A stretch of DNA of 64,000 nt from Lytechinus pictus (taxonomy: Eukaryota), in assembly GCF_037042905.1 (NCBI RefSeq), contig NC_087250.1, forward strand, positions 5,768,001 through 5,832,000, written 5' to 3'. This document shows positions 16,450 to 64,000 of this stretch, piece by piece. Numbering within the stretch: position 1 is the first letter of the stretch; the number at the start of each line of letters is the position of its first letter. The position numbers and the translations under genes are program-made. The notes below the pieces were generated by a model, which was not told where the DNA came from, ran no database searches, and saw nothing but the letters and a program-made list of their open reading frames with translations.

Positions 16450-16728
16450 GGATATGTGGCATCAATTAAATGGCAAACTTGAACCACAGAGGATATGAAA
16501 GTGGAAGTATCCTCACACGGAGCGCCCGAAATCATGACTTGTGAAACAAACACCCCGTTTGAAAGCAAGACATTGAGCACACTGAGCCAATAAAAGTGAA
16601 ACTTCATTGTGTGCCAACTCTTAATAGTCACTTGATAAGACAAGCTTCTGACCAACAACCAATATAGGTCGTTGTGTCTCAATCGAAACAGTTTTTACAT
16701 TTCGATAGAGTTTGTGTTGAAGCAGACC
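16450..16728 (+). promoter_or_regulatory. Proximal promoter/5'UTR of gene A with IRF/ETS-like motifs
   Basis: Alignable with 52556-52802. GAAAGTGGAAGT at 16497-16508 is identical at 52597-52608. CCAAT at 16587 is directly followed by IRF-E-like AAAAGTGAAACT at 16592-16603. Confidence 0.45.
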
Positions 16729-17019
16729 ATGGGCGCCAAAGGGTCAAAGAAGTCAACCATTGACAATGCTGACCCCGGAAGTGGTCTAGCAGGCAATGGT
16801 CAGCGGGACGAAACGCCTTCAGGCGATCCTAAGCCTTCGGTTGAGACCGGGAGAGATGCGGCTGTGAGCTCCACCGAAGCGGTTACAGCAACCCAAGCGG
16901 TTGAGACGTCGGGTGCGCAGGGAGCCTCAGGAGGTGCAGGCACGACTCCAGCTACGGAGTCCAGTAAGAAGGAAGCCACGACGGACATTCTTGATACAAC
17001 AGGGAGCTCAGAAAAAGCG
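16729..17019 (+). CDS. Gene A exon 1: MGAKGSKK myristoylation motif + low-complexity A/T/S/E/G tail (97 aa)
   Basis: Start context accATGG; donor GCG|gtacgt; paralogous exon at 52803. Confidence 0.9.
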
Positions 17020-20000
17020 GTACGTTAATTGCACAGCAAAAACTGTGGTGTTAACCGGTGTACATAGAGGACCACACCAGTTATTTTACACCGGTGTTAA
17101 ATTGGTGGTGTTATTTTTACACCTATAGGTGTTATTACAACACCTATGGTTGTTACATTTACACTTTTTGGTGTTATGTTCAATCTCTAGGGTGTTATTT
17201 TAACACCTCAGGGTGTGGTCCTCTATTAACACCAATTGGTGTCAGTTTTAACACAACAGTTTTTACAGTGTGTATACGCTTAAAAACGTATCGTTGCATG
17301 TGTGTGTGTGTGTGTGAGGGTGTGTGTGTGTGAGAGAGAGAGGGTGTGTGCATGAGTGTAAATATTTGTAGATTTTTAAATATTTATTTTGCCCATGATA
17401 TCTGTGATATCGGCTCCCGACATTGAGCTTAATTGAACCCATCGTCTGTAGCGAGTACCAGCTATAGCTCATAACAATAAAACTATCGTACCAGAAAATC
17501 ATTAAGATTGTACAAAAAGAAAACGAAATGATTTTTTATGGGTTTTATCATTCCTTTTGTCCCTAATTTTCAGATTTTTCCAGCTCACTGGATTGGTTTT
17601 CGAGAGATATTCGTACAGTACATTCCTGGTAAACCCTACACTCTCACCGAGTTCGGTGCCCATCTTTACTCCTCTAATGGACTGCATGGACGCCATGAGT
17701 TCAGGGCTATCGACGGGTCAGGATTGGCTAAAAAGGTTGGATTGAGGTAGGTTTGTGGCTTTGTGCTATAGCTCAGTTTTAGTTTAGTTTATTTCACTTC
17801 CATTTTCTGATAATAAACATAACAAACATATATACATATGTATGAATGTACAAAACAGAATAAGTGTCATAAGAATACTTCAATAATTAATTAACAAATT
17901 CGTAGGAAATAGATGGAATATATACAATTCTTTTGTTCCAGATACATTTTGATGATTAGACAAATAATAGATTACGGTTAGCATTTAAAAATGAAAATGA
18001 GGGACTTATTAAAAAGTGAAGCTTGTAATTGTAAGTCCCTTAGGATAAATTTATAGCAATCTTAATCGTATGTAATCAAAAGTAAAGTAAGACAATCTAG
18101 ACCATATATGAAGAAAGGCAAAATAGGTTTGAATAACAAGGAAAGTAAAGGGGGGGGGGGCAGTAACTACATAGGTTAGGGGGATAAGGGAATATTAAAA
18201 AACTGGGGGAAAAAGAAAACAAAAACAAAAAGAAACGATTATGTGTCCAGCAGAAAAGGGATAGCTAGTCTGCAAGCAAAGACTCGAATACAACACTAAC
18301 TGATATACATGTATAAAATGCCTGTTCATCTCACATTTTTGCCCAGTGCTATCTATGGATAATAATGTATTATTTAGTGTGATGTAAAATGATGTTGTAA
18401 TGACACCCAAATTGATTATTCTATTTCTGTCGTATTTAAATGGTCAATTTGTCAAGTGCATTGACTGTTGTTATTATTACCGCTATTGTTACTCATCATT
18501 GTTATTATTATTACTACTGTATTATGACAAGGGTAGGAAATACGGGGACATCCCGATAGACCGCGGGTCCGTTAGACCGCGGGTCCGATAGACCGCGGGT
18601 CCGATAGTCCGCGGGTCCGATAGACCGCGGGTCCGATAGTCCGCGGGTCCGATAGACCGCGGGTCCGATAGTCCGCGGGTCCGATAGACCGCGGGTCCGA
18701 TAGTCCGCGGGTCCGATAGACCGCGGGTCCGATAGTCCGCAGTGTGTGTAAAATTATGATCAGATATATCAAATGTCATCGAGAGGTCCAAAGGTCAAAT
18801 GATACGAGGCCATGGGGTTCTATCAGGTGCGGATCCATGGGGGGGGGGGGGGGCGAGGGGGAACTGCCTTACCCCCCCCCCCCACCCCCAGCTCAAAAAA
18901 AGAGGGGGGAAGAGGGGAAAAGGAGAGAATAAAAAAGAAAGAGCAAGATGGGAAAAGAACAGAATAGAAAAGAGAGTAAGAAGGAGAAAGGAAGAGAAGA
19001 AAAAAAAGAGAAGAAAAGGGGAAAGGAAAGACAAAGAAAATGGGAGAAGAAAAGGGGAAAGAAGAGAAAAAAAGAGAGGAGGGAAAAGGAAGAGGAGAAA
19101 AGAAAAGAAAGGAGAAAGTCAAAGGAGGAAAAAGAAGAAGAAAAAAAGAGGAAGGAAGAGAAGAATATTTAAATAGAGGAAGATGGGAAGAAAGATAAGA
19201 AAAAAGAGAGAGAGGAAGAGGGGAAAACAAGAGAAGAAAGAGAGAGAGAGAGAGGGGGAAGGGGGGGGGAGAGAAAAAAAAGATTAAAAGAAAAAAAGGG
19301 GGAAAGGAAAGAAAAAGAAAAAGGGAGAAGTAAAGGGGGAAAGAGAAAAAAGTGGAAGAGGGAAAAGAAAGAAAAGAAAAGAACGGAGTAAGGAAAAGGG
19401 GGAAAAGAAGAAGAAAAAAAGAGGAAGGAAGAGAATAATATTTAAAGAGAGAGGAAGATGGGAAAAGAGAAGGAAAAAAAAGAGAGAGTAAGGGGGGAGG
19501 AAGAGAAGAAAAACGAGAAAAGAGAGAGGAAAAGAGGAATACAAAGAGAAGAAAAAGAGAGAGAGAGAGGAGGAAAAGAAGAAAAGAAGAAAAGGGGAGA
19601 GGAAGAGGGAAAAAGAAAGAGAGAAAAAAAGAGAAAGGAAGGAATGGGAATGAGGATAAGAGAAAGAAAAAAAAGAAAGAAAAGGAGATGGGAAACGGAA
19701 GAGGGAGATGTTGACCTGGACGTCGATTTGATGGCGCCAAAATGACGTTCGAACTATGGGGCGCCGAACTGATGTTTGAACTGGGAGGGGGCGCCAAATT
19801 GATGTTCGAACTAGGGGAGCGCTAATTTGAATTTTGACCATAATGCGACAAATACATGTTTCAGAGAGGGGGAGGGAGGGCAAAGTTATATTTCACACGG
19901 GGGCGCCAAGTTTATGTTCAACCGAGGGCGCCAAATTGACCTTGAACTTAGGGGGCTTCATGCAAATTCATTTTCGACCGGGGGCGCAACATTGCTCGTA

Positions 20001-35000: not shown

Positions 35001-38000
35001 CTGTAAACACACTGTAAACACAATCTAAACACACTATGAATACTCTTTGAAAACACTGTGAATACACTGTAAACACAATCGGAACACACTATGAATACTC
35101 TTTGAACACACTGTAAACACAATCTGAACACACCATGAATACTCTTTGAACACACGGTGAACATACTGTAAACACAATCTGAACACACTATGAATACTCT
35201 TTGAACACACTGTAAACACAATCTGAACACACTATGAATACTCTTTGAACACACGGTGAACACACTGTAAATACAATCTGAACACACTCTGAATACTCTT
35301 TGAACACACTGTGAACACACTGTAAACACACTATGAATTCTCTTTGAACACACTGTAAACACAATCTAAACACACTATGAATACTCTTTGAACACACTGT
35401 GAACACACTGTAAACACAATCTGAACACACTATGAATACTATTTGAACACACGGTGAACACAATCTGAACACACTATGAATACTCTTTGAACACACGGTG
35501 AACACACTGTAAACACAATCTGAACACACTATGAATACTCTTTGAACACACGGTGAACACAATCTGAACACACTATGAATACTCTTTGAACACACGGTGA
35601 ACACACTGTAAACACAATCTGAACACACTATGAATACTCTTTGAACACACGGTGAACACACTGTAAATACAATCTGAACACACTCTGAATACTCTTTGAA
35701 CACACTGTAAACACACTATGAATACTCTTTGAACACACGGTGAACACACTGTAAACACAATCTGAACACACTATGAATACTCTTTGAACACACTGTGAAC
35801 ACACTGTAAACACAATCCGAACACACTATGAATACTCTTTGAACACACTGTAAACACAATTTGAACACACTATGAATATTCTTTGAACACACTCTGAACA
35901 CACTGTAAACACAATCTGAACACACTATGAATACTCTTTGAACACACGGTGAACACACTGTAAACACAATCTGAACACACTATGAATACTCTTTGAACAC
36001 ACTGTAAACACAATCTGAACACACTATGAATACTCTTTGAACACACGGTGAACACACTGTAAACACAATCTGAACACACTATGAATACTCTTTGAACACA
36101 CTGTGAACACACTGTAAACACAATCTAAACACACTATGAATACTCTTTGAACACACTGTGAACACACTGTAAACACAATCTAAACACACTATGAATACTC
36201 TTTGAACACACGGTGAACACACTGTAAACACAATCTGAACACACTATGAATACTCTTTGAACACACTGTGAACACACTGTAAACACAATCTAAACACACT
36301 ATGAATACTCTTTGAACACACTGTAAACACAATCTAAACACACTATGAATACTCTTTGAACACATTCTGAACACACTGTGAACACAATCTGAACAAACTG
36401 TAAACACAATCTGAACACACTCTGAACACACTGTAAACACAATCTGAACACACTCTGAACACACTGTAAACACACTGTAAACACACTGTAAACACAATCT
36501 AAACACACTATGAATACTCTTTGAAAACACTGTGAATACACTGTAAACACAATCTGAACACACTATGAATACTCTTTGAACACACTGTAAACACAATCTG
36601 AACACACCATGAATACTCTTTGAACACACGGTGAACACACTGTAAACACAATCTAAACACACTATGAATACTCTTTGAACACACGGTGAGCACACTGTAA
36701 ACACAATCTGAACACACTATGAATACTCTTTGAACACACTCTGAACACACTGTAAACACAATCTAAACACACTTTGAATACTCTTTGAACACACTATGAA
36801 TACTCTTTGAACACAATGTGAACATTGTGAATACACTGTATTCTTTCCAGTAGTTATTAATCTAACGATGTCACGATGGGCAATCGACAACCCTTGAAAG
36901 TTGTGTTTCCAATATACATAGCGTATGTTTATCCATTTTTATATCCCTAGCTTTTGCAGAACGTGTACCAAGGACCTTTAAAAGCACATTTGGTTTTGCA
37001 TTTTTAAGAACCGTTTGTAATAAAAATACAGAGAATGTTTTATTTCATTTTATTTCACAGACAAATATTAGACCAAAGTGATGTCTATGTTGTATTGGGT
37101 AGCGGAAAACAATTCTTCCCCTTTGGAATTTTCTTCCATTTGATTATTTTTATTTGGTTTTTTTTTGTGTGTAATAATGAGCAGAATTCAACCTGCATGA
37201 ATGCCCAATTCTTCCTAAATTCCGTTAATTTTCATTACCCTTTCTGTATTATTGAAAACCGGGCGGACTTGGCCTGCGTATTAGTGTAAAGATGGTAAGG
37301 GGGGGGGGGGTCGGACCATCTCCCCTCCCACTGAATTAAATTTTACAAAGAAAAGGGAGAAAGAAATAAAATTAAAGCGAAAGATTGAAATATATCATTT
37401 TCCGAATATTATGTCAAGATCTATTACATTTATATATTAAAAAGGTCACAATTAATGTTATTTTCTGTTTAGAACTATTGCTGCATGTACCATATCTGGC
37501 CCTCCCAAAAATGAATTCATTGCAAACATTTGTGTTAGGGAGCCCGGGCCTACAAATGAAACAGCAACATTCTATATATATATATATTTATATATTGTTT
37601 TTGCATTGTATCAGAAACTTTAACTTTGAACTTCTACGAAAGAATTGACAAAAGGAATGAGGTCGGCGAAGGGGGCATCCCCGTTGCCATTTCGACATCG
37701 ACGCCGTACCACAACGTCGAGAGGGACGCCGAGTCTGGAAGCTACTGCCACGACCCAATGTGCGTCGAAGGCGTCTCCGAAGGTCCTTTGGGTGTCGTTG
37801 TAAGTTTTACCTCATGTGAGCTCATCAGAGCACACTCTAAAAACAAATCAGTCAAAAATGACTAGGTAATAGGGTCAGCTGGGTGCAACTGTTATTCTAG
37901 TCATATTTGACTATTTTATAGTCGTATTTTACTAGAACATAGTTATTTTGGACTATTTTCAAGTCGTATTTTACTAGAACATAGTTATTTCTGACTAGAA

Positions 38001-48924: not shown

Positions 48925-50952
48925 ATTTTAGACGGTATTAACAGACTTTTGCTTGATTTCGGCGCATTTTGGGCTGTTTCAAGCCAACTCGCAATAATTT
49001 GCACGCTGATAATTTGAAAGCGAGCACATGGACCCCATACTTTAAATGTCTTAACTTCTTCAGAATATATTCCTTTCCAAATCTATAGTGTATGATGTCT
49101 CCAAATCTAGAGAGTATGATGAAAATGGCATGGATTTTGAATGTTTGGAGATAGACTAAGGACCCATTCGTATTTTAGACATTTTGGACGGTATTAGACT
49201 TTTGCCCATTTTAGGCGCATTATAGACTGTTTCAAGCCAACTCGCAACACTTTGGACACTGATAGTTTAAAAACGAGCACATGGACCCCATATTCTTAAT
49301 ATTTTAACGTCTTTAGAATATATTCCTTTACAAATCTAGAGAGGATGATGAAAATGACATGGATTTTGAATGTTTGGGAGCAGAACTACGGAACCATTCG
49401 TAGTTTGGACTTTTTGGGCGGTATAATCAGACTTTTACTTGTTTTCGGCGCATTTTGGGCTGTTTCAAGCCAACTCACAACAGTTTAGACACTAATAGTT
49501 TAAAAACGAGCACATGGATCCCATGTTCTTAATATTTTAGCGTCATCAGAATATATTCCTCTGCAAATCTGGAGAGTATGATGAAAATGACATGGATTTT
49601 GAATGTTAGGGTGCAAAACTACAGAACCATTCGCATTTTAGACGGTATTATTAGGTTTTTGCACGTTTTCGGCGCATTTTAGGTGGATTTCAATATTTTC
49701 AAGCCAACTCGCAACAATTTAGACACTGATAGTTTGAAAACGAGCACATGGACCCCATGTCTTTAATATTTTAACGACATCAGAATATATTCCTCTGCAA
49801 ATCTAGAGAGTATGATGAAAATGACATGGATTTTGAATGTTAGGGAGCAAAACTACGGAACCATTTGCATTTTAGACGGTATCAATTATTTGGTTTTTGA
49901 ACGTTTTCGGCGCATTTTAGGTGGATTTCAATATTTTCAAGCCAACTCGCAACAATTTGGATACTGATAGTTTGAAAACGATTTCGTGGACCCCATGTTT
50001 TTAATATTTTAACGTCATCAGAATATATTCCTCTGCAAATCTAGAGAGTATGATGAAAATGACATGGATTTTGAATGTTAGGGAGCAAAACTACGGAACC
50101 ATTCGCATTTTAGACGGTATTATTTGGTTTTTGCACGTTTTCGGCGCATTTTAGGTGGATTTCAATATTTTCAAGCCAACTCGCAACAATTTGGACACTG
50201 ATAGTTTAAAAACGAGCACATGGACCCCATATTTTTAATATTTTAATGCCTTATGAATATATTCCTCTACAAATCTAGAGAGTATGATGAAAATGACATG
50301 GATTTTGAATGTTAGGGAGCAAAATATACAACCATTGCATTTTAGAGGGTATTTAGAGAGACTTTTGCATGTTTTCGGCGCTTTTTAGGCGATTTTTTAA
50401 AGCCAACTTGCAACACTTGGGACAGTAATAGTTTAAAAACGAGCACATGGACCCTATATTTTTTTATATTTTAACGTCTTTAAGAATATATTCGCCTACA
50501 AATCTGGATAGTATGATGAAAATGACATGGATTTGCATTTTAGACGGCATTATTAGACTTTTGCAAGTTTTTGGCGCATATTGGGCGATTTTCATGCCAA
50601 CTCGCATCACTTTGGACACTCAGTTAAAATACGAGCACATGGACCCCATATTTTTAACTTCCCTACACCTTTGATATGCATTCCTCTACAATTTAGCCAA
50701 ATTTGATGAAAATGACATGGATTTTGAATGTTTGGGGGCAAAACTACGGAACCTTTTGCACTTTAGACGGCATTTTTAGACTTTTGCACGTTTTTGGCGC
50801 ATATTGGGTGATTTTCATGCCAACTCGCATCACTTTGGACACTCATAGTTAAAAAACGAGCTCATGGACCCCATATTTTTAACTTCCCTACACCTTCGAT
50901 ATGCATTCCTCTACAATTTAGCCAAATTCAACGAAAATGACATGGATTTTGA
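48925..50952. repeat. ~235-bp tandem repeat, about 9 copies
   Basis: cgagcacatggacccca and gatgaaaatgacatggattttg recur nine times. Confidence 0.9.
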
Positions 50953-52345
50953 AAAAAGTGCAGCTTACAAAATACTTTTTAAATTTTTGAGTAGATTCAC
51001 GTCTTTGAAGATGAGTTTTTTCCGAGTTTTTGCACAATTCTTGCCATATGAGGGCGCTGCTGACTCCAAATGGATATAGTTTTACCAATTACAAGAATTT
51101 TTCTCACTTTGGTATACACTTTGTTATATATCTAAAAAAAATTGATGAAGTTTGATGTGGTATCCACTGAGTAAAGATGATTTAAACTCATTTGGTGAAT
51201 TCGTGAGGTCTAAGAGAGGCATTATTCTCTTCATTGCGCGAGATTGCATATCATTCAAATACGGCGACTTTGAAGACCCGTAGAAAAAAATAAGCACATC
51301 TTGATCCTAAATTTCTTTTTTGCATTTTCATAATGCATAGATACCGAAGTGACTCTCTGCAAAATTTGGTGAAAATAACACGGACTTCGCTTGTATGACT
51401 GTTTAGTAGTTATATGCATGAGGGACGTTTTGCAACAGCTACGCAGACGCTTTTTGAAACATAGAGAATTCTTTTGGCAATTTGGCCTTTAATGACACCA
51501 GTTTCGCCCTTGACTCTAGACAAACGACATATTTGCGATTTTTCGTCAGCCCGGCCTGAAATGTCGGACACGTAACTGCATGCTCTTCCGATTCAGCAAC
51601 GCTTTAAAAAAGACTTCATTTGTGATTTGACTTGTGTTTTCAACTCATTTGGTGCGTTGTACGACTTATTCCGCGTCGCTTGGCAAAAACTCGCTATTAC
51701 TGCAGCAATGAAGCGACCAATAAGCTAAATATCGGTAAACCTGTCTGTCCTAAATGTTTGCAATTATGATATATAGCATAAGCCGCAAGAGCAAAATAGG
51801 CTTTTACCTTGAATGAAGTTAACTGATCCCTTCACGTTGAAAGAGGGGGTGGGATGCGAGAAAAATACAGGGATATGATTTTTTTTTAAAGTTTGACTTG
51901 AGAATGATACGATAAGTTTCATTGTGTTTACAATGAGTGATTGTCTTTTTTATTGTCACGTGGAGGCGTGTGTGACATCAAATGTTTTTTGTTTTTGTTT
52001 TATTATTATACTGGAAACAGGGGCTATTATTTTCTTGTTTTAAATCTTTTAAATACACTACTTGGTGCACAAGTCTGCACCATCTCTATCTTTCTGCTGT
52101 TACAAGGTTTGACAAATTTTTCATCAAAGAAAACAAAGTTACTGGTTTTCAAAATCCAATTTTGTGATGTCATGCAAGCAATGCAAGCAGCTATCGTGAA
52201 CGACGTTGACTGGCTATGACAGATGTCCTAAGAAAATGGAAAAGGGCGTCACAGTTTATTTTAGGTTTCCTCGGGGACTTGGGAACGATTATTAGTTTTT
52301 AATAAGCAACCCCCCAAAAAAAATTAATTAGAAAGTAAAAAAGGG

Positions 52346-52384
52346 GCCTAAGCTTTCGATCCTAGCAGAATCTTCGTCGGAGGC
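52346..52384 (-). ncRNA. Second, identical copy of the minimal hammerhead ribozyme
   Basis: 39 nt identical to 266-304. Confidence 0.7.
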
Positions 52385-52802
52385 AAATTGACAAACATAT
52401 ACAAATTAATGAATAAATGAAATGAAATAAATATGTATATATACATATATATTAATAATAATTATCATTATTATTGTAACCATAAGAATAAAATAAATGC
52501 ATAAAAATACAATAAAACCCAGTACCGCCCCCTACATCCCAGTGCCATGGGGGTAAATATGTCGCATCGAATGACAACATGAACTACGGAGGATATGAAA
52601 GTGGAAGTATCCGTGCGCCCTAAATCATATATCAAATAAAACATCCTGTTTGAAAGCTAGACATGAAACGTACGGAGCTGAGGCAATAAGTGCAACTGCA
52701 TTGTGTGCCAACTCTCTTAGTCAACAACATAACCATTATAAGTCTTTGTGTCTCAATCGAAACAGTTTGTACATTTCGATAGAGTTTGTGTTGAAGAAGA
52801 CT

Positions 52803-53087
52803 ATGGGCGCCAAAGGGTCAAAGAAGTCAAACAGGGCAACCGTTGACAATGCTGACCCAGGAAGTGGTTTAGCAGGCAATGGCCAGCTCGACGAAACGCC
52901 TTCAGGCGATGCTAAACCTTCGGTAGAGACCAGGAAAGATGCGACTGTGAGCTCCACCGAAGCGGTTACAGCTACCCAAGCCGCTGAGACGTCGGGTGCG
53001 CAGGGAGCCTTGGGAGATGCAGGCACGGCTCCAGCGGAGTTATCTACGACGGACATTCTTGATACATCAGAGGGCTCAAAAAAAGCG
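52803..53087 (+). CDS. Gene B (tandem paralogue of gene A) exon 1, 95 aa
   Basis: MGAKGSKKSNRATVDNADPGSG...DILDTSEGSKKA; same donor position (GCG|gtaggt); indels relative to gene A preserve the frame. Confidence 0.88.
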
Positions 53088-53125
53088 GTAGGTTAATTGT
53101 ATACGCTTAAATACGTACCGTTGCA

Positions 53126-54720
53126 CAGGGGCGTTGATCCATTTTTCAGATTGGGGGGGGGGGCAAAATTATGAGTCAATGTTCCCATATTCCAAAGGTG
53201 GTCGATCACATATAACACACCCATCCACACACCTATGTATTTATGTATATATATATATATACATATATATAACTCATGAGAAAGAGACACACATCTTACC
53301 AACAAATCAATGCGAGCGCGAAAAGCAAGCTGAAATTGTTTAGTATACTGATGTGAAAACCGGAAAAAGGTACCCATTTAGGACTGTTTGAGTAACTCAC
53401 GAGGAGGATGCATATCTCACTACACAGATAATGGTGTCCTTTTTTGTTAAATTGTTGTATGGTTTGATCGTTTGCGAAGTCGCAAGGGATAATATTGTAA
53501 TACGTGTAAGGCGTTCTGACGTAGATGTTAGATTTGTACACCTAAAGGCAAGAACATAGAGACTCCATCAGACTGCAATTCACAGATATCCCATAGTATG
53601 GGAAGCCCTGCCCTCTGAAAGCAGAGTTGAAATAGTCTCGGGAAACATTAATCATGTTCTGTGTGTCCTCAAGAGGGATATCCTTAAGTTCCAGTTAGAT
53701 TAAAATATAAATTAGAATATGTCTAAAGATCCACAACACATTATCAAGTTTCTTTTTAATTTTCTAAACTGTGTCCAATTTATTATTTCTTTATATCTTT
53801 TATCTCATTCGTTGTAAAGTTATTTATTTCCACTGTTGGCTCAATTATATTTAACCGAATATTTGTTCCTCCTGTTTTCTTTGGTTAAGTCAAACATAAG
53901 TTGGTTCCTTTTTTTTTTGTGCAACCTACCTGTCTTGTACTATTATGTTATTCTATTTTGTAACTCTATTATGTAATGATCTTTTTTCACCCAATCAGGT
54001 GTGGGAGGGAAGACCTGTGGGCCATGGCCATTAAGTTGACCTATTCCCTACCCAGGCTACCTGGTTGGGTGAGAAAGGGTCTAAAAATTATTTGTATTTT
54101 TGTATTTTTTCTCAATTTTGCATTGTACATGCTGTTTTGTTTTTGATGAAGTGCCGAATAAAATAATAATAATAATAATGTGAGTGCCGAGAGCGAGCTG
54201 AAGTTTCTTTATATTCTGACCTGAAAGCTTGATATTCTAAGCATGTTTGGTACCAATGATTAAGATGGGTATCTAAAACAATAGATGCGAGCGCGAAGCG
54301 CGAGCTGTAAATTTTGATATTTCGATCTGAAAAAATTGACAGTTTAACTGACGTTTTTAATAAAGAACTAGATATATTGCAAATCGAAGCGGGAGTTCTT
54401 TTGAGGTTTAGAACTGAAAATGGGACATTCTATTCACAATTTAATCATGACAAGTAATGGTTTTTGCTACAGAAATGATGCGAGCGCGAAGCGCGAGCTG
54501 AAAATTTTTATATTACAATCTGAAAGCGGCATTTTGAGCACGATTTTAAATAAAGAATGAGTTGTGTATCTCAATCTCGCTTGCTGAGTTCTATGTAACA
54601 GAACAATCTTATCTTATTTTTGCACATGTGGAATTATTGGGGGGGGGGGGGGGCAAAACGATATGTTTGCCCCCCCCCCCAAATATTTTCATTGGTGGGG
54701 CGATCGCCCCCCCCCCTCTG
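53126..54720. mobile_element. hAT-like non-autonomous element in gene B intron 1, with a nested LINE-like fragment
   Basis: 8-bp TSD CCGTTGCA (53118-53125, 54721-54728) and CAG...CTG ends. The empty site is visible in gene A intron 1. Confidence 0.85.
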
Positions 54721-55268
54721 CCGTTGCATGTGTGTTTGGGTGTGAGGGTGTGTGTGTGTGTTTTAAAGATAGATTATGCGTGTGAGAGAATTGTCTTAAT
54801 GTTTATTTGGATGTTTATTTGCTGAGTGTGGTGTGTTTTGTCTAGGTGTTTTGAAGGGGAATGGGGTTGCCACCTGGCGGTAGTTTACATGGTGGAGGAG
54901 TTTTTTTTTGGTGGGGGGGGGGGTGGATTTGAATTTTGATGTTGTTATTAAGTAACTTCCTTTTTTAATTTCACAATCGTTGATTTTGGAAAATCAACAT
55001 GAATGAATGTTGAATGAATGTGTTTCATGAAAAAGGAAGAAAAACATGAAGATTTGAATGAATGATTTTGTAATAACTGTGATGTTCTGAGACACAGAAA
55101 TAAAATATAGAGCCATGGGGTTGGTTGAAATAAGAGGTCGGCCTATGTGCTCCTCTTGCATACTTTACTTACTTTACTTTCAGTCCACGATGCTGTAGGC
55201 TTGAGTTGAGTGCCTGTTCATCGATCGTAGTATCTCCTCTGGTGGTAGTACAGTATCCATGGTATTAA

Positions 55269-55305
<37 letters not shown>

Positions 55306-55306
<1 letters not shown>

Positions 55307-55840
55307 TTCGGGAATACTATCCTTGTATAGAGTGCTCGATGTCCTTCACAGGAAGAGCTTTGAATAATAAACACAAGTTCACAAGGTTGTCACAAGGTTG
55401 CAGTGACATCACCAATACTAGTGATGCAGCCTTTATAGGCATAATTTTCGTTTCACTTTCATTATTATCAATTCTATGGCATCTCATCTTATTATCGGTT
55501 AATCGATCAACCACCCATCGCGGAGTATCGATTATTTGTAAAACATTTGAAAAACATTCAAATTATAAAAACCTCAGCGCGCACTGGTTACCTAGTTTCC
55601 TGCGCACAGTATGTGCGTGTTTGGTGAAACGCGCTTCGCGCGATCGCGACATGCATTGTTCAATGGTATTGAAAAGTTTTATCATTTGCCTGAAGATCGC
55701 ACCTCACGTAGGTTGCGTGAAACTCAGAGTTGCAATTAAATTTGATGAACCTCCAGTCAACCTTGTGAACTTGTGTTTATTATTCAAAGCTCTTCCTGTG
55801 AAGGGCATCGAGCACTCTATACAAGGATAGAATTCCCGAA

Positions 55841-55841
<1 letters not shown>
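55306..55841. mobile_element. TIR element (84-bp TIRs) inserted in (TA)n
   Basis: 55306-55389 is inverted at 55758-55841; TA repeats on both flanks. Confidence 0.85.
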
Positions 55842-55882
<41 letters not shown>

Positions 55883-55924
55883 ACAAATGAAGACTTAATA
55901 GAAACGCCGTGAGGAGACGTAATC

Positions 55925-55958
55925 TTCGAACTTTTCGGTCACAGACCTTCTTCAGGGA
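55925..55958 (-). ncRNA. Hammerhead-like motif in a short Penelope pLTR fragment
   Basis: Minus strand reads CC-CUGAAGA-A-GGUC(UGU)GACC-GAAA-AGUUCG; the fragment (about 55880-56073) lies between (TA)n tracts. Confidence 0.6.
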
Positions 55959-56067
55959 TGAATTTATCAAATCCAAAACAGGTTGCATCATTTGGCATTT
56001 TGGTGATGATACCAAAGCGCAATAAATACAATGCGCAACAACATAACGCGACAGGTGCACTTGTGTT

Positions 56068-56104
<37 letters not shown>

Positions 56105-56269
56105 GTGAAAGAAATGGATGAAGAGAACAATGGTAGGCGTAGCTTAAATCAAGGTTCCCCAGAGCTATCTACCCTTTTTGGAAAAATGGGAAAAATGGGA
56201 AAAATTGGAAAAATTCACACAATATTTAAATATAAAAGAGTTGCCAAAGCTGTAGTACATATATAACTT

Positions 56270-56327
<58 letters not shown>

Positions 56328-57146
56328 CGAACAAATTACAAGACGATTTGACGTTGCTTGGAAGACCACAATTTAATCAAGCTTTCGGCCTTAGGCCTTC
56401 TTCATGGGTTCTATAAACAAAAGCGAACGAAACATAATCAATATTACAAAGGGAGGAACAGATGGACATATGGACATATAATACTGTTATAATAACATAT
56501 GTAACATAATCAATGGTACAGAGGGAGGAACAGATGAACATATGGACATATAATGCAGGTGTAATAGCATATGTAACAATGACGTCGTACGTATACAATA
56601 TATGCAAATACATACATATACAGAATACATGCACATAAACATCTACATATATATATACATACATATGTAAATATACACATACATACACATATGATGTACA
56701 AACATGACGAATCTAATGTGGGGTAATTTTACCTGGGTCTTTGGGGTCTTTCGGGCTGACTCGGAGGTGTGTAGTGTCGTGCGTTCGGTTTCTGGTGTGA
56801 TATATATAATTTGCGTGACTTATGTTCATTCAAGTGAAACGGTGAAGGTGTAGGTCATTAAACGCTGCATTGTTATTACGCCGGTAAATTCGAGAGGTTA
56901 CATTATAAAGACTTATAATTCATACAGGTAAAAGACCAGATACGATTATAGATGTTCACAAAAAATGTATATATATGTTCATAAAATATATATGTTCATA
57001 ATATATATATATATATGTTCACAAAAAAGAAATATATATGTCGATGATAACAATCTCTTGTCATTATCGAATAACAAATAGGTTTGATATCAAAGTATAA
57101 ATAAGTATCGTAAATAGTATGAGTCGTAAATTGGGACTGGACTTCT

Positions 57147-59888
57147 CTATTCCTCAACATTTATACCGTGCGGGTGAAGCGTTTTGAGTTTATGTATCCA
57201 GAATGATTCTCTATGGAGGATAGTGTTGTGTGATTCGTTGTTGATGAGTTCGATACCTGTTATCATTGCATTTTCTACTGAGTGGTTTGGGAGATTGAAA
57301 TGTGTTGTGTACGGCAATGTTTTGTGTTGTGGGGTGTGGTAGTTTCTTATTTCTGATCGAGTGTTATTGAAGCGTGTGTATATTGTTGTTTCTGTTTTTC
57401 CTACATATTGTTTACCACACTGTGAACATGTGATTAGGTATATTGCCCAGCGGGATTTGCAGTTTATGTTGGATCTTATGGTATATTCTTGTCCTGTGAC
57501 TGTGCTCCTGAATTGTTTTGTCTCTATGATATGTTTGTGGAGAACACATCTGGGCGATGGGCATTTGAAAAACCCGACAGTAGAGGTTTCATGGGCTTGT
57601 TGGGTGAGCTGGGATGGGTCTCGTGCCCGTACTAGTAAATCTTTAAGAGTGCGTCCTCGACGGAAGGATGTTGTAGGGGGTTGAGGGAATATATCTTTCA
57701 TCTTGTTTGACTGGTGTAGAATGGGAAGGTGTTTGTGTAGATTTCGGGGGATGGAGGCAGTAGGTGGGGAGTATGTAATTGGGAAGAAGATCTTGGTTGG
57801 GTCAGATGTGTTGGGGGGTTTGTATTGAAGTAGATCCGACCTGGGTTTGTCAGCGGCCCGTTCAATTTGTTGTCTTACCATGTGTTTATCATAATTTCTA
57901 TCCATGAAGTGATGTTCCAGTTGTTGCATGTGGTGTTCTGTCCTTGTGTTGTCCGAACATATTCTTCTTACGCGTAAAGCCTGGCTGTATGTGATGCCTT
58001 TGAATGTGTGTTTTGGGTGGCATGATGATGGGAGCAGATATGTGTGGGTGTCAGTGGGTTTTGTGAATAGTTCGGTGTGTATTTGTGCATCAGAGAGTTG
58101 TAAGGAGACATCCAGGAAGTGTGCATTGTGGTTTGAGGATTCAAATGTGAATTTGATCGTCGGGTGGAGAGTGTTCATTGTGGTTTGTAGTTTATTGAGA
58201 GTTCTTGGTGATCCTGACCAGAGGAAGAAAATATCATCTATGTATCGTTTCCAGGATGTTTTGAGTGTAGTGCTGTGTGAGTTTGATATTATTTGTTGTT
58301 CAAGTTTGCCCATGAAGATATTGGCGTATGTAGGGGCAACAGGTGTGCCCATTGCCGTCCCTTCTATTTGAATGTAGTGTGTGTCATTGAATTTGAAATT
58401 ATTAAGGGTAAGTATTAGCTCGAGCAGTCTAATGAGTTGGTTTGTTGGGGGATGTTGTTCTTTCCTTTTGTCAAGGGCTTCCTTACACGCTAGTATACCT
58501 TCTTTATGTGGAATATTGGTATATAGGGATTTTACGTCTGCGGTTACTAGGATCGTTCTGGGACTGATTTGGGATTCTCTGTTGATGGTAGATACGTGAT
58601 TGAGGAAGTGGGTGGTATCTTTGAGGTGTGATGGTAGTTGTTCTACGAAGGGTCTGAGATAAAAATCGACAAGTCTAGATATTTGTGCAGTGGGGCATGA
58701 ACACCCAGATACAATAGGGCGCCCGGGATTGCCCGGTTTGTGAATTTTAGGAAGGAAATAAAGGTTGGGACATGTAGCATCCTTTGGGGTTAGGACTTTC
58801 TTTGTTTGGGTATCTGTTTCCAAGTTTTTAACTGCCCTTTTAACCTGTTCTATGTGATGGGGAGTGGGGTCTCTATCAAGCCGGACATAGGTAGTTTGGT
58901 CTGAAAGTTGTCTAAGACCTTCAGCAATATAGTCTTTTGTGGACATTATGACAACAGATGAGCCCTTATCGGCTGGTTTTATGATGATATCTTTGTTAGC
59001 TCGTAATTTCCTGAGCGCCATTCTTTCATCTCTCGTCAAGTTGTCATAATGTATCTTTGTGTTGTATTTGTGGGTTTCTTTCTCTACATCCTTTAAGACA
59101 GTGTCGAGAAAAATATGGAGATGCGGCTCGTGCACAGAAGGGGTCCAGGTGTTTGGGGGCTTGATAAGTTTGGGCTGCTTGATATCATTATCGTCTGATT
59201 TGCTGGGGGTTTTAGGCGTATGATTTTGATCATTTTGGTCATTTCGTTTGTCAGTATAATGGACTTTAAGCATCATACGTCTTTTTAGGCCGTCCATGTC
59301 CTTTTTTATGTCAAGGGTGTCTACCTGAGGGGGTGTGGGGCAAAATTTGAGTCCCTTGGATAAGAGTTTTATTTCTGATTCCGATAGTGTGTAATTGGAT
59401 AGGTTGACGATAGGGACTTTGGGTCTTTCCTTTTGTGCAAGGGGCGCATCTCCATTTACAATTCTTTTCGCAGCTCGTCTGCGTCTTAAGTATTGTTTCT
59501 TTCTAAATCTTCTACACTTATGTTTATTTCTGTGCCCACTGTTGATGGGGTTGGGTTGTGAGGAATTAACGGCGATTAGTTCTTTGACGTACTTACAATT
59601 TATTTCGTCACGTTTCAATTTCTCTTCTTTCTTTTCAGTGAGGTGTCTTTCTTTCTGTGCGCAGTCAAAGTTGATTCGGTTGATTGTTCTGTGGTATATG
59701 TCACTCGTGCATTGTTCCCTCAGTTTAGTACGGAGTTTAATTGTTTCCTTGGATATAATGTCGTATTGTTGTCTTACTGCTTCGACGGTTAGGTCCCGTA
59801 GTTGTCGAGCGGCGTTCCAGAGCGTCGTAGACCAATCGACATCGATCCTATCATTATTCTCAAATCCGAAAGATTTTTTTAACAACAT
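57147..59888 (-). CDS. Penelope-like RT + GIY-YIG endonuclease polyprotein (913 aa, probably 5'-truncated)
   Basis: RT motifs LVTADVKSLYTNIPH, QIEGTAMGTPVAPTYANIFM, WKRYIDDIF and FLDV; Cys linker CPSPRCVLH; GIY-YIG motif AIYLITCSQCGKQYVGKT...RESFWIHKLKTLHPHGIN. Confidence 0.95.
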   Translation of the reverse strand: MLLKKSFGFENNDRIDVDWSTTLWNAARQLRDLTVEAVRQQYDIISKETIKLRTKLREQCTSDIYHRTINRINFDCAQKERHLTEKKEEKLKRDEINCKYVKELIAVNSSQPNPINSGHRNKHKCRRFRKKQYLRRRRAAKRIVNGDAPLAQKERPKVPIVNLSNYTLSESEIKLLSKGLKFCPTPPQVDTLDIKKDMDGLKRRMMLKVHYTDKRNDQNDQNHTPKTPSKSDDNDIKQPKLIKPPNTWTPSVHEPHLHIFLDTVLKDVEKETHKYNTKIHYDNLTRDERMALRKLRANKDIIIKPADKGSSVVIMSTKDYIAEGLRQLSDQTTYVRLDRDPTPHHIEQVKRAVKNLETDTQTKKVLTPKDATCPNLYFLPKIHKPGNPGRPIVSGCSCPTAQISRLVDFYLRPFVEQLPSHLKDTTHFLNHVSTINRESQISPRTILVTADVKSLYTNIPHKEGILACKEALDKRKEQHPPTNQLIRLLELILTLNNFKFNDTHYIQIEGTAMGTPVAPTYANIFMGKLEQQIISNSHSTTLKTSWKRYIDDIFFLWSGSPRTLNKLQTTMNTLHPTIKFTFESSNHNAHFLDVSLQLSDAQIHTELFTKPTDTHTYLLPSSCHPKHTFKGITYSQALRVRRICSDNTRTEHHMQQLEHHFMDRNYDKHMVRQQIERAADKPRSDLLQYKPPNTSDPTKIFFPITYSPPTASIPRNLHKHLPILHQSNKMKDIFPQPPTTSFRRGRTLKDLLVRARDPSQLTQQAHETSTVGFFKCPSPRCVLHKHIIETKQFRSTVTGQEYTIRSNINCKSRWAIYLITCSQCGKQYVGKTETTIYTRFNNTRSEIRNYHTPQHKTLPYTTHFNLPNHSVENAMITGIELINNESHNTILHRESFWIHKLKTLHPHGINVEE

Positions 59889-60431
59889 CTATAATCGTAT
59901 CTGGTCTTTTACCTGTATGAATTATAAGTCTTTATAATGTAACCTCTCGAATTTACCGGCGTAATAACAATGCAGCGTTTAATGACCTACACCTTCACCG
60001 TTTCACTTGAATGAACATAAGTCACGCAAATTATATATATCACACCAGAAACCGAACGCACGACACTACACACCTCCGAGTCAGCCCGAAAGACCCCAAA
60101 GACCCAGGTAAAATTACCCCACATTAGATTCGTCATGTTTGTACATCATATGTGTATGTATGTGTATATTTACATATGTATGTATATATATATGTAGATG
60201 TTTATGTGCATGTATTCTGTATATGTATGTATTTGCATATATTGTATACGTACGACGTCATTGTTACATATGCTATTACACCTGCATTATATGTCCATAT
60301 GTTCATCTGTTCCTCCCTCTGTACCATTGATTATGTTACATATGTTATTATAACAGTATTATATGTCCATATGTCCATCTGTTCCTCCCTTTGTAATATT
60401 GATTATGTTTCGTTCGCTTTTGTTTATAGAA

Positions 60432-60463
60432 CCCATGAAGAAGGCCTAAGGCCGAAAGCTTGA
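60432..60463 (+). ncRNA. Hammerhead-like motif in the Penelope pLTR (mirror copy at 56377-56408, minus strand)
   Basis: CCC-AUGAAGA-A-GGCC(UAA)GGCC-GAAA-GCUUGA; the core has A in place of C3. Confidence 0.55.
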
Positions 60464-60568
60464 TTAAATTGTGGTCTTCCAAGCAACGTCAAATCGTCTT
60501 GTAATTTGTTCGCCTAAGTATTTGGTACAAGACACAGTAGTCATGTTAAAGAGTGGATGCCTGTTTAC

Positions 60569-60650
<82 letters not shown>

Positions 60651-60740
60651 TATAAAAGAAGAGGGCCCTTTGCATAACGTGTATTACAGCGCGTCATGTT
60701 CTATGTACACTTGTAAATAATTCAGCATCAACGCAAGACG

Positions 60741-60803
<63 letters not shown>

Positions 60804-60806
<3 letters not shown>

Positions 60807-61335
60807 TAACACGAGAAAGGACTGTCAAAAGTGTGTACATGTATGCTAAAAACCGTGGAAACACAAATACAATACTGCCTACACTGGCTTATAGAGCAAA
60901 TCATAATTCTTTGACCAGTGTCTATCCAGGCGATTTTTGAAGGAGTTGACTGAAGAAGCCGAAACAACACTGTCGGGAAGATTCCACATATCTACAACTT
61001 TGTTACTGAAAAAGTACTTCCTAATATCAAGCCGAGAAAATTTCTTCTCCAACTTCAACCTATGAACTTTAGCATGTCTAGACCTCTGCGACAAATTGAA
61101 AAGGTTTTGTTGTGTGTAATATATTCCAGTCAAGTACTTGCAGACATCAATCATGTCACCTCTACTGCGCCTATGAGCAAGTCTTGGCAATTTGAGTTTC
61201 ATGAGACGTTTCCTATAAGACAGATTTCAAAAACCTGGAATCATTTTGTGGCTCGCCTCTGTACACTTTCTAACTCTCTTTGTTCACTCATATGGTGACC
61301 ATGCGGCTTGTCCATACTCTAATAGGGGTCTGATA
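60804..61335 (-). mobile_element. CR1-type LINE ORF2 C-terminal fragment
   Basis: LKLPRLAHRRSRGDMIDVCKYL...RLDIRKYFFSNKVVDMWNLP...NSFKNRLDRHW. Confidence 0.85.
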
Positions 61336-61396
61336 ACTTAATGGGGTTTCACCGATTGGGGGCTCGTCATAAAAAGTTGTCACGTTCCGTTTTTAA

Positions 61397-61967
61397 AGGA
61401 AAATGAAACCTTTGAACCAAGATAACTTGTGTGAAATAAAGCAAAGACACAGATTAGAAAAAGTTTGAGAAAAATCGGACAATTAATGAGAAAGTTATGA
61501 GCATTTGAATACAGCGATCACTAATGATATGGAGATCCTCCAATTGGCAATGCGACAAAGATGTGTGATGTCACTTGTTAAATACTCTCCCAGTTTAGTA
61601 TATATTTCACTTAAACTGCCTCTTTTATCACATCTACCAGGAAATCTGTTTTTCTATAGGAGGGCATGATGCATGTCATACAGATTTTCAAAGTATACAT
61701 TATAGATAAAGAATTTGTATTACCATACGAAAGAGCGAAAAGAGACATTTATTTTCGGTGGTATTCTATAGTCCATCAAAGTTGTTCACATGTGACATCA
61801 CACATTGCATTTCTAATGGGAGGATCTCCATAGCATTATGATCGCAATATGCAAATGCTCATAACTTTTTCATTATTTGTCGGATTTTACTCGAACCTTC
61901 TTTGTTCTTATTCTTGGATTTTTCTGTTTCCACACAAGACTAATTGTTTCAAAGTTTGCATTCCCCT
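61397..61967. mobile_element. Kolobok-like MITE
   Basis: TTAA|AGGAAAATGAAACCTTTG ... CAAAGTTTGCATTCCCCT|TTAA with long imperfect arms. Confidence 0.7.
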
Positions 61968-62627
61968 TTAAAATGGTGGATTTACCCCTGGTGTCAGTGG
62001 TATGTGTGCGTGTTGGGGGAATAAGCCAGTTCGTAGTTCCTTTCTGCGCATGATCAAAAAGTTCTACGCATGATCAGAGGAAGGTCATTTGTACCAAAGT
62101 GACATGGTGGTTTAAAATCTAATGAGATAAGCACCAACTTTGATGTCTTTATTATTCATATATTCTTTTGAAATGTGGTTTTCATTTACATCCACAAAAA
62201 AAAACAATGCGTCCACGAACGACTGGCATTTAACAGTTTGCCAAGTTCATTGTGCAACATGCTATGATATGCATTCAAAGTAGGAATGCAACAAATACCT
62301 TCATAAAGTGTCCATTGGTGTGCTATTCTTGTCACCTGGTCTATTCAGTTTCTTCATCCTGATATGTAAGGCAAGCTTACGTAATATCTTGCTTTGAAAT
62401 CTGCCTATCATAATGAAAGAAATGAAAGGTCATTTGACCAAAATTGTCCATGAAGTAACTACGAACTGGTCTATATGCATGGCGTCGGGAGTGGCTTTTT
62501 GAAACACAATTAGAATAGATGATTGCGTTCAGCACTGTGCACAATGGAAGCTTAAAAGTGCCACCCCGATGTTAATCATCTCGTCATATCTACATCTCTT
62601 AGGGAAAAAGGATAAGAAATTATCAAA

Positions 62628-62870
62628 TGGCAAGATCTTGGATCTCGTCATGTCTACATGTTGTGGGAGAGATGATCAGATGGCAAGATCTTGGATCTCG
62701 TCATTTCTACATCTTGTGGGAGAGATGATCAGATGGCAAGATCTTGGATCTCGTCATGTCTACATCTTGTGGGAGAGATGATCAGATGGCAAGATCTTGG
62801 ATCTCGTCATGTCTACATCTTGTGGGAGAGATGATTAGATGGCAAGATCTTGCATCTCGTCATGTCTACA
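62628..62870. repeat. 53-bp minisatellite, about 4.5 copies
   Basis: tggcaagatcttg recurs at 62628, 62681, 62734, 62787 and 62840. Confidence 0.9.
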
Positions 62871-63199
62871 ACCATATCGAAAACTTGCATACAGTGTACC
62901 GGACATGTAAAAACATAGCAGACGACGTTTGCAGACCTCGCGATCATCGTATGACTAGTGGTGCAGAATGTTCCATTGCGGCTTTATGGGGGGAATAGCA
63001 TTACAGAGGGATTTAATGTATACACAAATAATACCAACCATGATATCTGTAAAGTAGGCTACCGACGTTGAGCTTGATTGAACCCATCGTCTGTAGCGAA
63101 TACACGCTAGGTCATAACAATAAAACCATCATAACAGAAAATCATTAAGATTGTACACCTGATTAAAATAATCACGGGGCTTGCATAAAGCTTCACAAG

Positions 63200-63781
63200 C
63201 TTCAGAATGCTTCAGAATGCATGCAGCTGCTCGCATTGTCATTTTTTCAAGTAAACGTTCTCACATCACTCCATCTTGAATTCGCTGCACTGGCTCCCTA
63301 TCAAAAATCGGATTATCTTTAAGATTTTGTTGCTTGCTTTTCATAGTATTCTTGGATCAGCACCACAATACAGTCTTTCACTTATCAATCACTACAGACC
63401 AAGCAGGTCTTTGCGCTCCATTGACATATCCACTGAGGATTATCTATTGTTACTGGGGGTGCTGTGACAATGCTCAGCACCCCCAGTAACGATAGAATAA
63501 TCCTCCATGGATAGGTCACTGTTGCGCTCATCCACTTCTGGCTTCCTTGTTATTCCAAAAGTTTCAAAAACTTGGGGGGACATTCGCTTTTGCATGCCCC
63601 ACTTTGTGGAATAGCCTTCCTGAAGTCATAAAGAAGTGTACCTCTGTCGAAACTTTCAAAAATCTTCTAAAAACTTTTTTTAATTTTTTTTATTTAACTC
63701 TTAGCTCTTTACGCGCCTTGAGCACTCTACAGGGTGGATTTGGCGCATATAAGTCACATTATTATAATTATTCATTATTAT
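63200..63781 (+). mobile_element. L2-type LINE 3' fragment with an ~85-bp hairpin inserted (63428-63513)
   Basis: LHWLPIKNRIIFKILLL...FAFACPTLWNSLP...TFKNLLKT and an (ATT)n-like tail; absent from the homologous position of gene A intron 1. Confidence 0.8.
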
Positions 63782-63834
63782 AAAAAAAATGAAAACGAAT
63801 TGATTTTAATATCCCTTTTGTCCCTAATTTTCAG

Positions 63835-63998
63835 TTTTTTCCTGCTCACTGGATGGGTTTTCGAGAGATATTCGTACAGTACATCCCATGTAAACCCTAC
63901 ACCCTCACCGAGTTCGGTGCTCATCTTTACTCCTCTAATGGACGCCATGAGTTCAGGGCTATTGACGGGTCAGGACTGGCTAGAAAGGTTGGATTGAG
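63835..63998 (+). CDS. Gene B exon 2 (FFPAHWMGFREIFVQYIPCKPYTLTEFGAHLYSSNGRHEFRAIDGSGLARKVGL-R); gene continues beyond the window
   Basis: ttttcag acceptor and AG|gt donor at the window end; 9 nt shorter than gene A exon 2, in frame. Confidence 0.88.
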
Positions 63999-64000
63999 GT

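Follow-up and report, generated by a model that had tools for sequence, protein, structure and literature searches.

Does the recurrence of a 5′ gene end within one stretch of sea urchin DNA mark a second working gene? The stretch is a window of 64,000 nucleotides (nt) from the Lytechinus pictus genome, C6:5768001-5832000 (C6 is contig NC_087250.1). Positions below are those of the window, and the same scale is continued past 64000, i.e., the C6 position minus 5,768,000 is given. The upstream gene, with its ATG at 16729, is termed copy A, and the downstream gene, with its ATG at 52803, copy B. A first-pass annotation of the window had described copy B as a tandem paralogue that differs from copy A by frame-preserving changes only, and had proposed that both copies are functional and form a small cytokine-like cluster, as IL-1 genes do in vertebrates. 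The segment 52557-64000 is read here as the 5′ end of a tandem, eight-exon gene of the IL-1anc type, a class of IL-1 homologues with a PDZ domain at the N-terminus, and this second copy is probably functional.

The duplicated segment

Positions 50001-64000 of the window were used as query in a self-BLAST search against positions 1-50000. Three collinear matches were found, all on the plus strand and with 79-89% identity. Segment 52557-53099 matches 16452-17031 (78.7% over 595 columns, E 3e-143), 63038-63157 matches 17393-17514 (86.9% over 122 columns, E 1e-35) and 63804-64000 matches 17543-17748 (88.8%, E 1e-73). The distance from ATG to ATG is 36,074 nt (52803 minus 16729). Thus the duplication of promoter, exon 1, intron remnants and exon 2 at a spacing of 36 kb, as first described, is confirmed.

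The collinearity is not limited to the window. It takes in the promoter, all exons and the introns (77-92% identity), and it continues for about 2.8 kb beyond the stop codons. The duplicated unit is about 30 kb long, from 16452 to about 46539, and the two copies lie head to tail. Copy B extends from 52557 to about 99362 and now measures about 47 kb.

On the 5′ side the homology reaches about 245-280 nt upstream of the ATG. An alignment of the two copies that includes this flank shows a mean column identity of 80%, and in the final 70 nt or so before the ATG there are three mismatches only. At about 215-240 nt ahead of the ATG, both promoters (16490-16514 and 52590-52614) carry a perfect 25-nt block, GGAGGATATGAAAGTGGAAGTATCC. 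Its ends are palindromic, GAAAGTGGAAGT forms its core, and it may serve in regulation, although by a rough estimate a perfect block of this length is not clearly above chance at about 80% neutral identity. The core resembles IRF or ETS sites, a likeness from which no claim is drawn.

Gene models of the two copies

With exon 2 as query, a Lytechinus variegatus protein, P0002 (LOC121417411, 442 amino acids), was found. This protein was then used to search the L. pictus genome (811 Mb, 368 contigs). The 23 matches consist of the eight exons of copy A, the eight exons of copy B, and seven matches on the minus strand 1.1 Mb upstream. The gene models are as follows.

Copy A
16729..17019, plus strand: exon 1, 291 nt, 97 codons; identical to RefSeq XP_063956741.1 (P0019)
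17574..17746, plus strand: exon 2, 173 nt
29040-29148, 30406-30463, 32352-32564, 37615-37799, 41207-41324 and 43582-43760, plus strand: exons 3-8, stop codon TAG

Copy B
52557..52802, plus strand: duplicated 5′ flank and 5′ untranslated region (UTR); the homology to 16452-16728 of copy A begins at 52557
52803..53087, plus strand: exon 1, 285 nt, 95 codons, ending in phase 0, donor GTAGGT
63835..63998, plus strand: exon 2, 164 nt, start of the PDZ domain, ending in phase 2, donor GTAGGT at 63999
83279-83387, 86234-86291, 89271-89483, 92063-92256, 93847-93961 and 98049-98230, plus strand: exons 3-8, outside the window

The copy A protein has 441 amino acids. In copy B the exon 1 product starts with MGAKGSKK, a myristoylation-like sequence, and continues as a polar, disordered segment. 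The lengths first given for exon 1, 95 and 97 amino acids, are read directly from the 285 and 291 nt. The splice sites in the window are likewise intact, as had been stated: exon 1 donors are GTACGT in copy A and GTAGGT in copy B, and at exon 2 both copies have the donor GTAGGT and the acceptor TTTTCAG. Over the full genes, seven of seven donors are GT and seven of seven acceptors AG in each copy, and the intron phases (0, 2, 0, 1, 1, 0, 1) are the same. Extension downstream shows exons 3-8 of copy B to be all present and open. Each difference in exon length between the copies is a multiple of three, the indels being +9/-15, -9, +9, -3 and +3 nt. The claim of frame-preserving changes only thus holds within the window and for every indel in the eight exons, but not for the coding sequence as a whole, since codon 414 of copy B, which lies outside the window, is an in-frame TGA (taken up below).

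Exon 2 of copy B is 9 nt shorter than that of copy A. The codons concerned are those of L-H-G, and they lie at a repeated ATGGAC, as had been noted. The direction of the change is less certain. The three residues are LHG in copy A and PHG in the L. variegatus orthologue, and they are absent from copy B and from six of six Strongylocentrotus purpuratus relatives. A precise slippage deletion in copy B at the ATGGAC repeat is possible; because all six S. purpuratus relatives lack the residues and L. variegatus has them, the 9 nt are more simply explained by an insertion in the copy A lineage than by a loss in copy B. Several exon 2 differences had been called silent or conservative. Synonymous differences do prevail (7.0 synonymous and 4.0 non-synonymous, with a ratio of non-synonymous to synonymous divergence, dN/dS, of 0.15), but among the four replacements there is a non-conservative one, Gly to Cys.

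Family placement and fold

Searches with P0002 at E ≤0.001 gave 12 matches among 1.84 billion representative proteins, and every named one is from a sea urchin. A phmmer search links P0002 to LpicIL-1.4 (LOC129260728) at E 5e-10. In hhalign, an alignment of eight family members against five of the LpicIL-1.4/LvarIL-1.3 group gave a probability of 99.8%, E 2.6e-28, over 286 columns that cover both domains. Fontenla-Iglesias et al. (Nat Ecol Evol 2026; PMC13736523) include proteins of the latter group among IL-1anc in their Table S2. As described in that paper, IL-1anc proteins have an N-terminal PDZ domain, a C-terminal IL-1 trefoil and no signal peptide, and are found throughout Eumetazoa; in their genes three to five exons code for the trefoil, and two central PDZ introns have conserved phases. 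In Table S2, S. purpuratus, L. pictus and L. variegatus have five genes apiece. The loci described here, LOC129263514, LOC129263511 and LOC121417411, are not among the five listed per urchin species, and none of the 7 supplementary files of the paper contains LOC121417411, LOC100892317, LOC105445920 or LOC100889353 (PMC13736523). Its authors warn that divergent IL-1anc members may have been missed (PMC13736523). A literature search on six locus names of the family found no paper that names them. Since both phmmer and hhalign reach the LpicIL-1.4 group and the loci are missing from the lists of the paper (PMC13736523), the locus is classed, by sequence homology, as a diverged IL-1anc subfamily that is not in those lists.

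Exons 2-4 encode the predicted PDZ domain, split by two introns in phases 2 and 0, and exons 5-8 an IL-1-type beta-trefoil in four exons. Of the Pfam profiles, PDZ_6 is found below threshold only (E 0.008, 16.3 bits, cut-off 27), and PF13180, the PDZ profile of the IL-1anc screen as given in PMC13736523, is not matched. A family profile run against PDB sequences returned mostly PDZ domains, with weak values of E 0.002-0.7, and residues 131-214 of the P0002 model show a PDZ-like order of strands and helices.

This model was made with AlphaFold2 from an 18-row alignment. Its confidence (pLDDT) is 70-91 over residues 130-420 or so, and the first 110 or so residues are disordered. In a Foldseek search against the PDB, the 21 rows listed before lysenin (rank 24) are all IL-18, IL-1alpha or IL-1beta; E values of these IL-1-type matches start from 1.7e-6 and target TM scores are 0.61-0.76. 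With VIA-align, IL-1alpha is at the top (Z 15.8, rmsd 2.4 Å, 137 residues), and IL-33 (Z 14.0), IL-36gamma (13.6) and IL-37 (13.3) are all in the top seven; unrelated beta-trefoils reach up to Z 14.0. Exons 3-8 of copy B, as represented by the RefSeq protein P0005, have IL-18 and IL-1 as their top structural matches (E 9e-5). An ESM Atlas search gave IL-18, IL-33 and IL-1 clusters at 0.77-0.81 with an unrelated bacterial cluster in the top row, and is taken as a lead only. Thus the comparison with IL-1 genes that was first made is right in kind, with a basis in the PDZ plus beta-trefoil fold, in both structural searches and in the hhalign match to IL-1anc.

Three short motifs should also be considered. 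An MG..(S)K start is found in copies A and B, in L. variegatus P0002 and P0023, and in S. purpuratus P0004, P0007 and P0021; it fits the N-myristoylation pattern, and basic residues follow it. A second motif stands just before the PDZ domain and reads DILD in Lytechinus and EP(R/H)D-G in S. purpuratus. The third, VFEAANT, places F-E-A where IL-1anc has (F/L)ES; it is shared by A, B and L. variegatus, S. purpuratus has FKA or IKA, and the serine is absent. In the P0002 model its position fits a late strand of the trefoil. By sequence reading no signal peptide is present: the first 100 or so residues are polar, have no hydrophobic run and are modelled as disordered.

Cytokine or intracellular scaffold

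The cytokine side of the reading has points against it. Pfam IL1 (PF00340) is not matched at E up to 1 by P0002, P0003 or P0004, so that the likeness to classical IL-1 is structural only, the model of copy B's own sequence is of low confidence (mean pLDDT 52), and a cytokine activity of the subfamily is putative.

Both copies may instead work as membrane-anchored intracellular scaffolds, with a PDZ domain and a beta-trefoil for binding, and not as secreted cytokines. Sea-urchin IL-1anc genes are not linked to IL-1R-like genes, according to PMC13736523, which would suit such a role. The conservation of an MGxxxS(K/G) N-terminal motif in A, B, and the L. variegatus and S. purpuratus proteins, the lack of a signal peptide, and the replacement of (F/L)ES by FEA in Lytechinus and by FKA or IKA in S. 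purpuratus are all compatible with it, and lectin, FGF and other beta-trefoils are within 2 Z units of IL-1 in VIA-align. However, IL-1 members come first in both structural searches, and IL-1alpha and IL-1beta ordinarily exist as membrane-associated pro-forms that lack a leader. In architecture and homology the proteins agree with IL-1anc, and for S. purpuratus IL-1anc immune induction, a pro-form-like localisation and caspase cleavage of one member are described (PMC13736523). A scaffold role is therefore a possibility that is kept in mind, with the odds against it, and an IL-1-type product is preferred.

Is copy B under selection?

The proteins of A and B are identical at 359 of 429 aligned residues (84%). 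Between the two coding sequences dS is 0.179, dN 0.095 and dN/dS 0.53 (bootstrap 0.37-0.80). Exon 1 has a ratio of 0.50, the PDZ exons 2-4 one of 0.15 and exons 5-8 one of 0.71. The ratio of a pair is of limited use here: one constrained copy and one that drifts neutrally would also average 0.53, and therefore each lineage was examined separately.

When changes were polarised with S. purpuratus as outgroup, 15 derived changes fell in A and 15 in B. In the 59 columns that are invariant in at least seven of the eight other family members, A keeps 58 and B keeps 58, and the single departure is common to both. There is thus no change specific to B in these columns, where about a dozen would be expected if B were neutral (a rough estimate from dS/2, with about 2.3 non-synonymous sites per codon). 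These two results, the equal polarised changes and the retained invariant columns, indicate that copy B has been under purifying selection for most of its life. Together with the intact splice sites and a dN/dS below 1, they suggest that both copies are functional, which for copy B is likely.

Several observations weigh against a functional copy B. The first is the premature stop: at codon 414 copy B has TGA where A has GGA. After it come 21 codons that are still conserved (dN/dS 0.17 over 24 codons), and then the old TAG. The conservation of these codons shows the stop to be young; it could mark the onset of decay, a polymorphism or an assembly error. The second is intron 1, which at 10.7 kb is 19 times longer than that of A and holds a Penelope-like retroelement with an open frame of 913 codons. 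Third, the RefSeq model of copy B, P0005 (LOC129263511, 390 amino acids), equals exons 3-8 with the same TGA end, and it begins in a transposon-derived exon within intron 2 and skips exons 1-2 of the window; its residues 1-127 are encoded at 79626-80006 with 100% identity. An older model, P0001 (LOC129263514, 375 amino acids), splices exon 5 of A into the 5′ UTR of B, at a cryptic acceptor 23 nt before B's ATG, so that exons 1-5 of A are fused to the 5′ UTR and, out of frame, to exon 1 of B. Given the start of P0005 in a transposon exon and the splice of P0001 from A, B's own promoter may not be the promoter in use. Last, in a protein comparison with L. variegatus the private replacements number 20 in A, 22 in L. 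variegatus and 40 in B (40 against 20, binomial p 0.013), which fits either an older split or a faster copy B.

Taken together, these points outline a copy that is decaying or re-wired. Its promoter and exons 1-2 would be unused, and a transposon-initiated or read-through message, or nothing useful, would be made; a re-wired product would be without the lipid-anchor motif and would have half a PDZ domain. The dN/dS of 0.71 in the trefoil exons can be added on this side. However, all 14 splice sites are intact and all indels are in frame, the changes in exon 2 are mainly synonymous, the polarised changes are equal and the invariant columns are kept. It should be noted that gene-prediction models near transposons are often wrong. 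The stop falls behind the last strand of the trefoil: in the P0002 model the last trefoil strand ends at residue 417, and B's stop corresponds to residue 421. The S. purpuratus relatives also end near this position, and therefore the fold of B is not truncated. Decay or re-wiring of copy B is thus considered unlikely, and a working copy that ends just after the trefoil is the favoured reading.

That two haplotypes of one locus were placed in tandem during assembly is hardly credible, even in sea-urchin genomes, which are very heterozygous, because synonymous divergence is about 0.18 and intron identity 77-92% only, intron lengths (554 against 10,747 nt, 11,293 against 19,280 nt) and repeat content differ, there are five in-frame indels, the older RefSeq records P0010, P0012 and P0020 give separate A-like and B-like loci with the diagnostic indels, S. 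purpuratus paralogues lie on one scaffold, and a sister pair lies in tandem 1.1 Mb away. A and B, which are in one 28.5-Mb contig, are thus read from their divergence as paralogues and not alleles, and for practical purposes the artefact is excluded.

The age of the duplication is less clear. Maximum-likelihood analysis of 13 family proteins places the L. variegatus orthologue in a three-way fork with A and B. Informative sites polarised with the outgroup number 6 for A with L. variegatus, 4 for A with B and 1 for B with L. variegatus. The one point in favour of a duplication before the two Lytechinus species separated is the three-residue insertion common to A and L. variegatus.

Introns, repeats and public annotation

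The difference in length between the two copies is found in the introns. The features of intron 1 of copy B are:

53088..63834, plus strand: intron 1 of copy B, 10,747 nt, against 554 nt in copy A
56377..60463, minus strand: Penelope-like retroelement with an RVT_1 and GIY-YIG frame
63038..63157, plus strand: remnant of the ancestral intron 1, collinear with 17393-17514 of copy A

Only the remnant and the final 30 nt or so of the intron align to intron 1 of A; the excess is made up of inserted repeats, the retroelement among them. The uninterrupted 913-codon frame of this element lies at 57147-59888 on the minus strand. Its RVT_1 match reaches 43.9 bits (E 3e-11; cut-off 29.6) and its GIY-YIG match 22.0 bits (E 2e-4), slightly short of the 22.6 cut-off. 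The element has inverted flanks of about 335 nt, at 56377-56712 and 60128-60463, which give the same translation on opposite strands. By its appearance it is young and may still be able to move.

Other repeats were seen in and between the copies. A GIY-YIG-like transposon fragment on the plus strand in intron 2 of copy B (79626-80006, C6:5847626-5848006) coincides with the first exon of P0005. In intron 5 of copy A there is a large tandem array with an 11-nt period (34590-36840). A shorter homologous array is in intron 5 of copy B (90456-90883), and a related one is upstream at 6320-6710. In the spacer between the copies a unit of about 234 nt is repeated in tandem about eight times (49098-50953). 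Intron 2 of copy A has a purine-rich low-complexity tract at 18760-19900, with a GC skew of 0.45 and long spurious frames rich in Lys, Glu and Arg.

L. pictus RefSeq proteins map to both copies at 100% identity. P0019 (LOC129263514, 467 amino acids) equals the copy A model plus 26 residues (FWAGVK...LLCAY), which arise from an acceptor 78 nt upstream of exon 3, in region 28960-29039. These residues are absent from the L. variegatus and S. purpuratus proteins, and the upstream acceptor is either an alternative acceptor or a modelling error. At its 3′ end (43740-43760) copy A reads ...RPEYPSL before the stop, where the older RefSeq protein P0010, L. variegatus and the post-stop frame of B read ...RPES; the 2-nt indel just before A's stop is a polymorphism or an assembly error. 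Copy B, given the models described above, is wrongly modelled in the public annotation.

The wider family

A second tandem pair, of a sister subfamily, is found 1.1 Mb away on the minus strand (C6:4689269-4738587). Its members are orthologues of L. variegatus LOC121417426 and are 78-93% identical to it over most exons. One copy has all eight exons and an MGIHASKG start. In the other, exons 2-8 were found, and exon 1 was not seen in the stretch examined. S. purpuratus also has several paralogues on one scaffold and at least six loci. The term small cluster, used in the first description of the locus, is therefore a fair one.

Echinoids might carry a whole subfamily of the IL-1anc type whose hallmark is an N-myristoylation-plus-basic start; in L. 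pictus it would comprise two tandem pairs that share a chromosome. In this tentative proposal, a tether cut at the Asp motif before the PDZ domain could release a leaderless IL-1. If the motif is used, the subfamily would consist of lipid-anchored pro-IL-1 proteins, and the tether could be an ancient route by which a leaderless IL-1 is positioned and released.

The history and product of the locus can be outlined as follows. A unit of about 30 kb was copied head to tail, and copy B later grew by insertion of repeats and retroelements into its introns. Both copies are predicted to encode a leaderless protein of about 410-440 residues with, in order, the MGAKGSKK motif, about 100 disordered residues, a PDZ domain and an IL-1-type beta-trefoil. 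The motif is probably a membrane anchor, because it is a likely N-myristoylation site followed by basic residues. Copy B, kept by purifying selection over most of its history, most likely still yields a working protein, with its end just past the trefoil, and is possibly transcribed from its own promoter. By analogy with characterised IL-1anc members, the product may sit as a pro-form in or at the membrane of immune cells. It would then be released after proteolysis without the need of a signal peptide; lipid anchoring, processing, secretion and any receptor are to be understood as parts of this putative scheme.

The locus also bears on the count of IL-1 genes. It was only in 2025-2026 that homologues of IL-1 were recognised beyond the vertebrates, and the founding count of five per sea-urchin species, as tabulated in PMC13736523, is too low. 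The diverged subfamily adds at least four genes in the L. pictus genome, and these were found by ordinary profile searches with urchin queries. The corrected models for two mis-annotated loci allow constructs, expression counts and probes to be designed for each paralogue. From the conserved lipidation-like N-terminus comes a directly testable idea on how a leaderless IL-1 is held at a membrane and released.

Comparison with known systems

The nearest known relatives are the listed IL-1anc proteins LpicIL-1.4 (LOC129260728) and LvarIL-1.3 (LOC121416031). These are alike to the present subfamily in having a PDZ domain split by two introns, a trefoil in four exons and no signal peptide (PMC13736523). 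They differ from it in sequence, with an identity of only about 22-27%. The present subfamily is also set apart by its long disordered N-terminal region with a conserved start of the MGAKGSKK type, and the Lytechinus copies by FEA in place of the (F/L)ES reported for IL-1anc (PMC13736523). A similar start is not confined to urchins, as four starfish and amphioxus rows of Table S2 also begin with MG(C/S/K), and the string "myristoyl" has no occurrence in the main text of the paper (PMC13736523). The DILD and EP(R/H)D-G motifs before the PDZ domain recall DEPD-G, the caspase site mapped in SpurIL-1.3 (PMC13736523).

The likeness to the vertebrate IL-1 family (IL-18, IL-1alpha, IL-1beta, IL-33, IL-36 and IL-37) is of another order. 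Structural alignments show 12-16% sequence identity, the Pfam IL1 profile is not matched at E up to 1, and where the vertebrate proteins have a propeptide, the present family has a PDZ domain and a lipidation-like N-terminus. The common features are the beta-trefoil fold, the leaderless product and the arrangement as tandem paralogues. In humans the IL-1 genes form a cluster on chromosome 2. The sea urchin subfamily likewise appears to evolve by tandem duplication, as the vertebrate IL-1 genes do.

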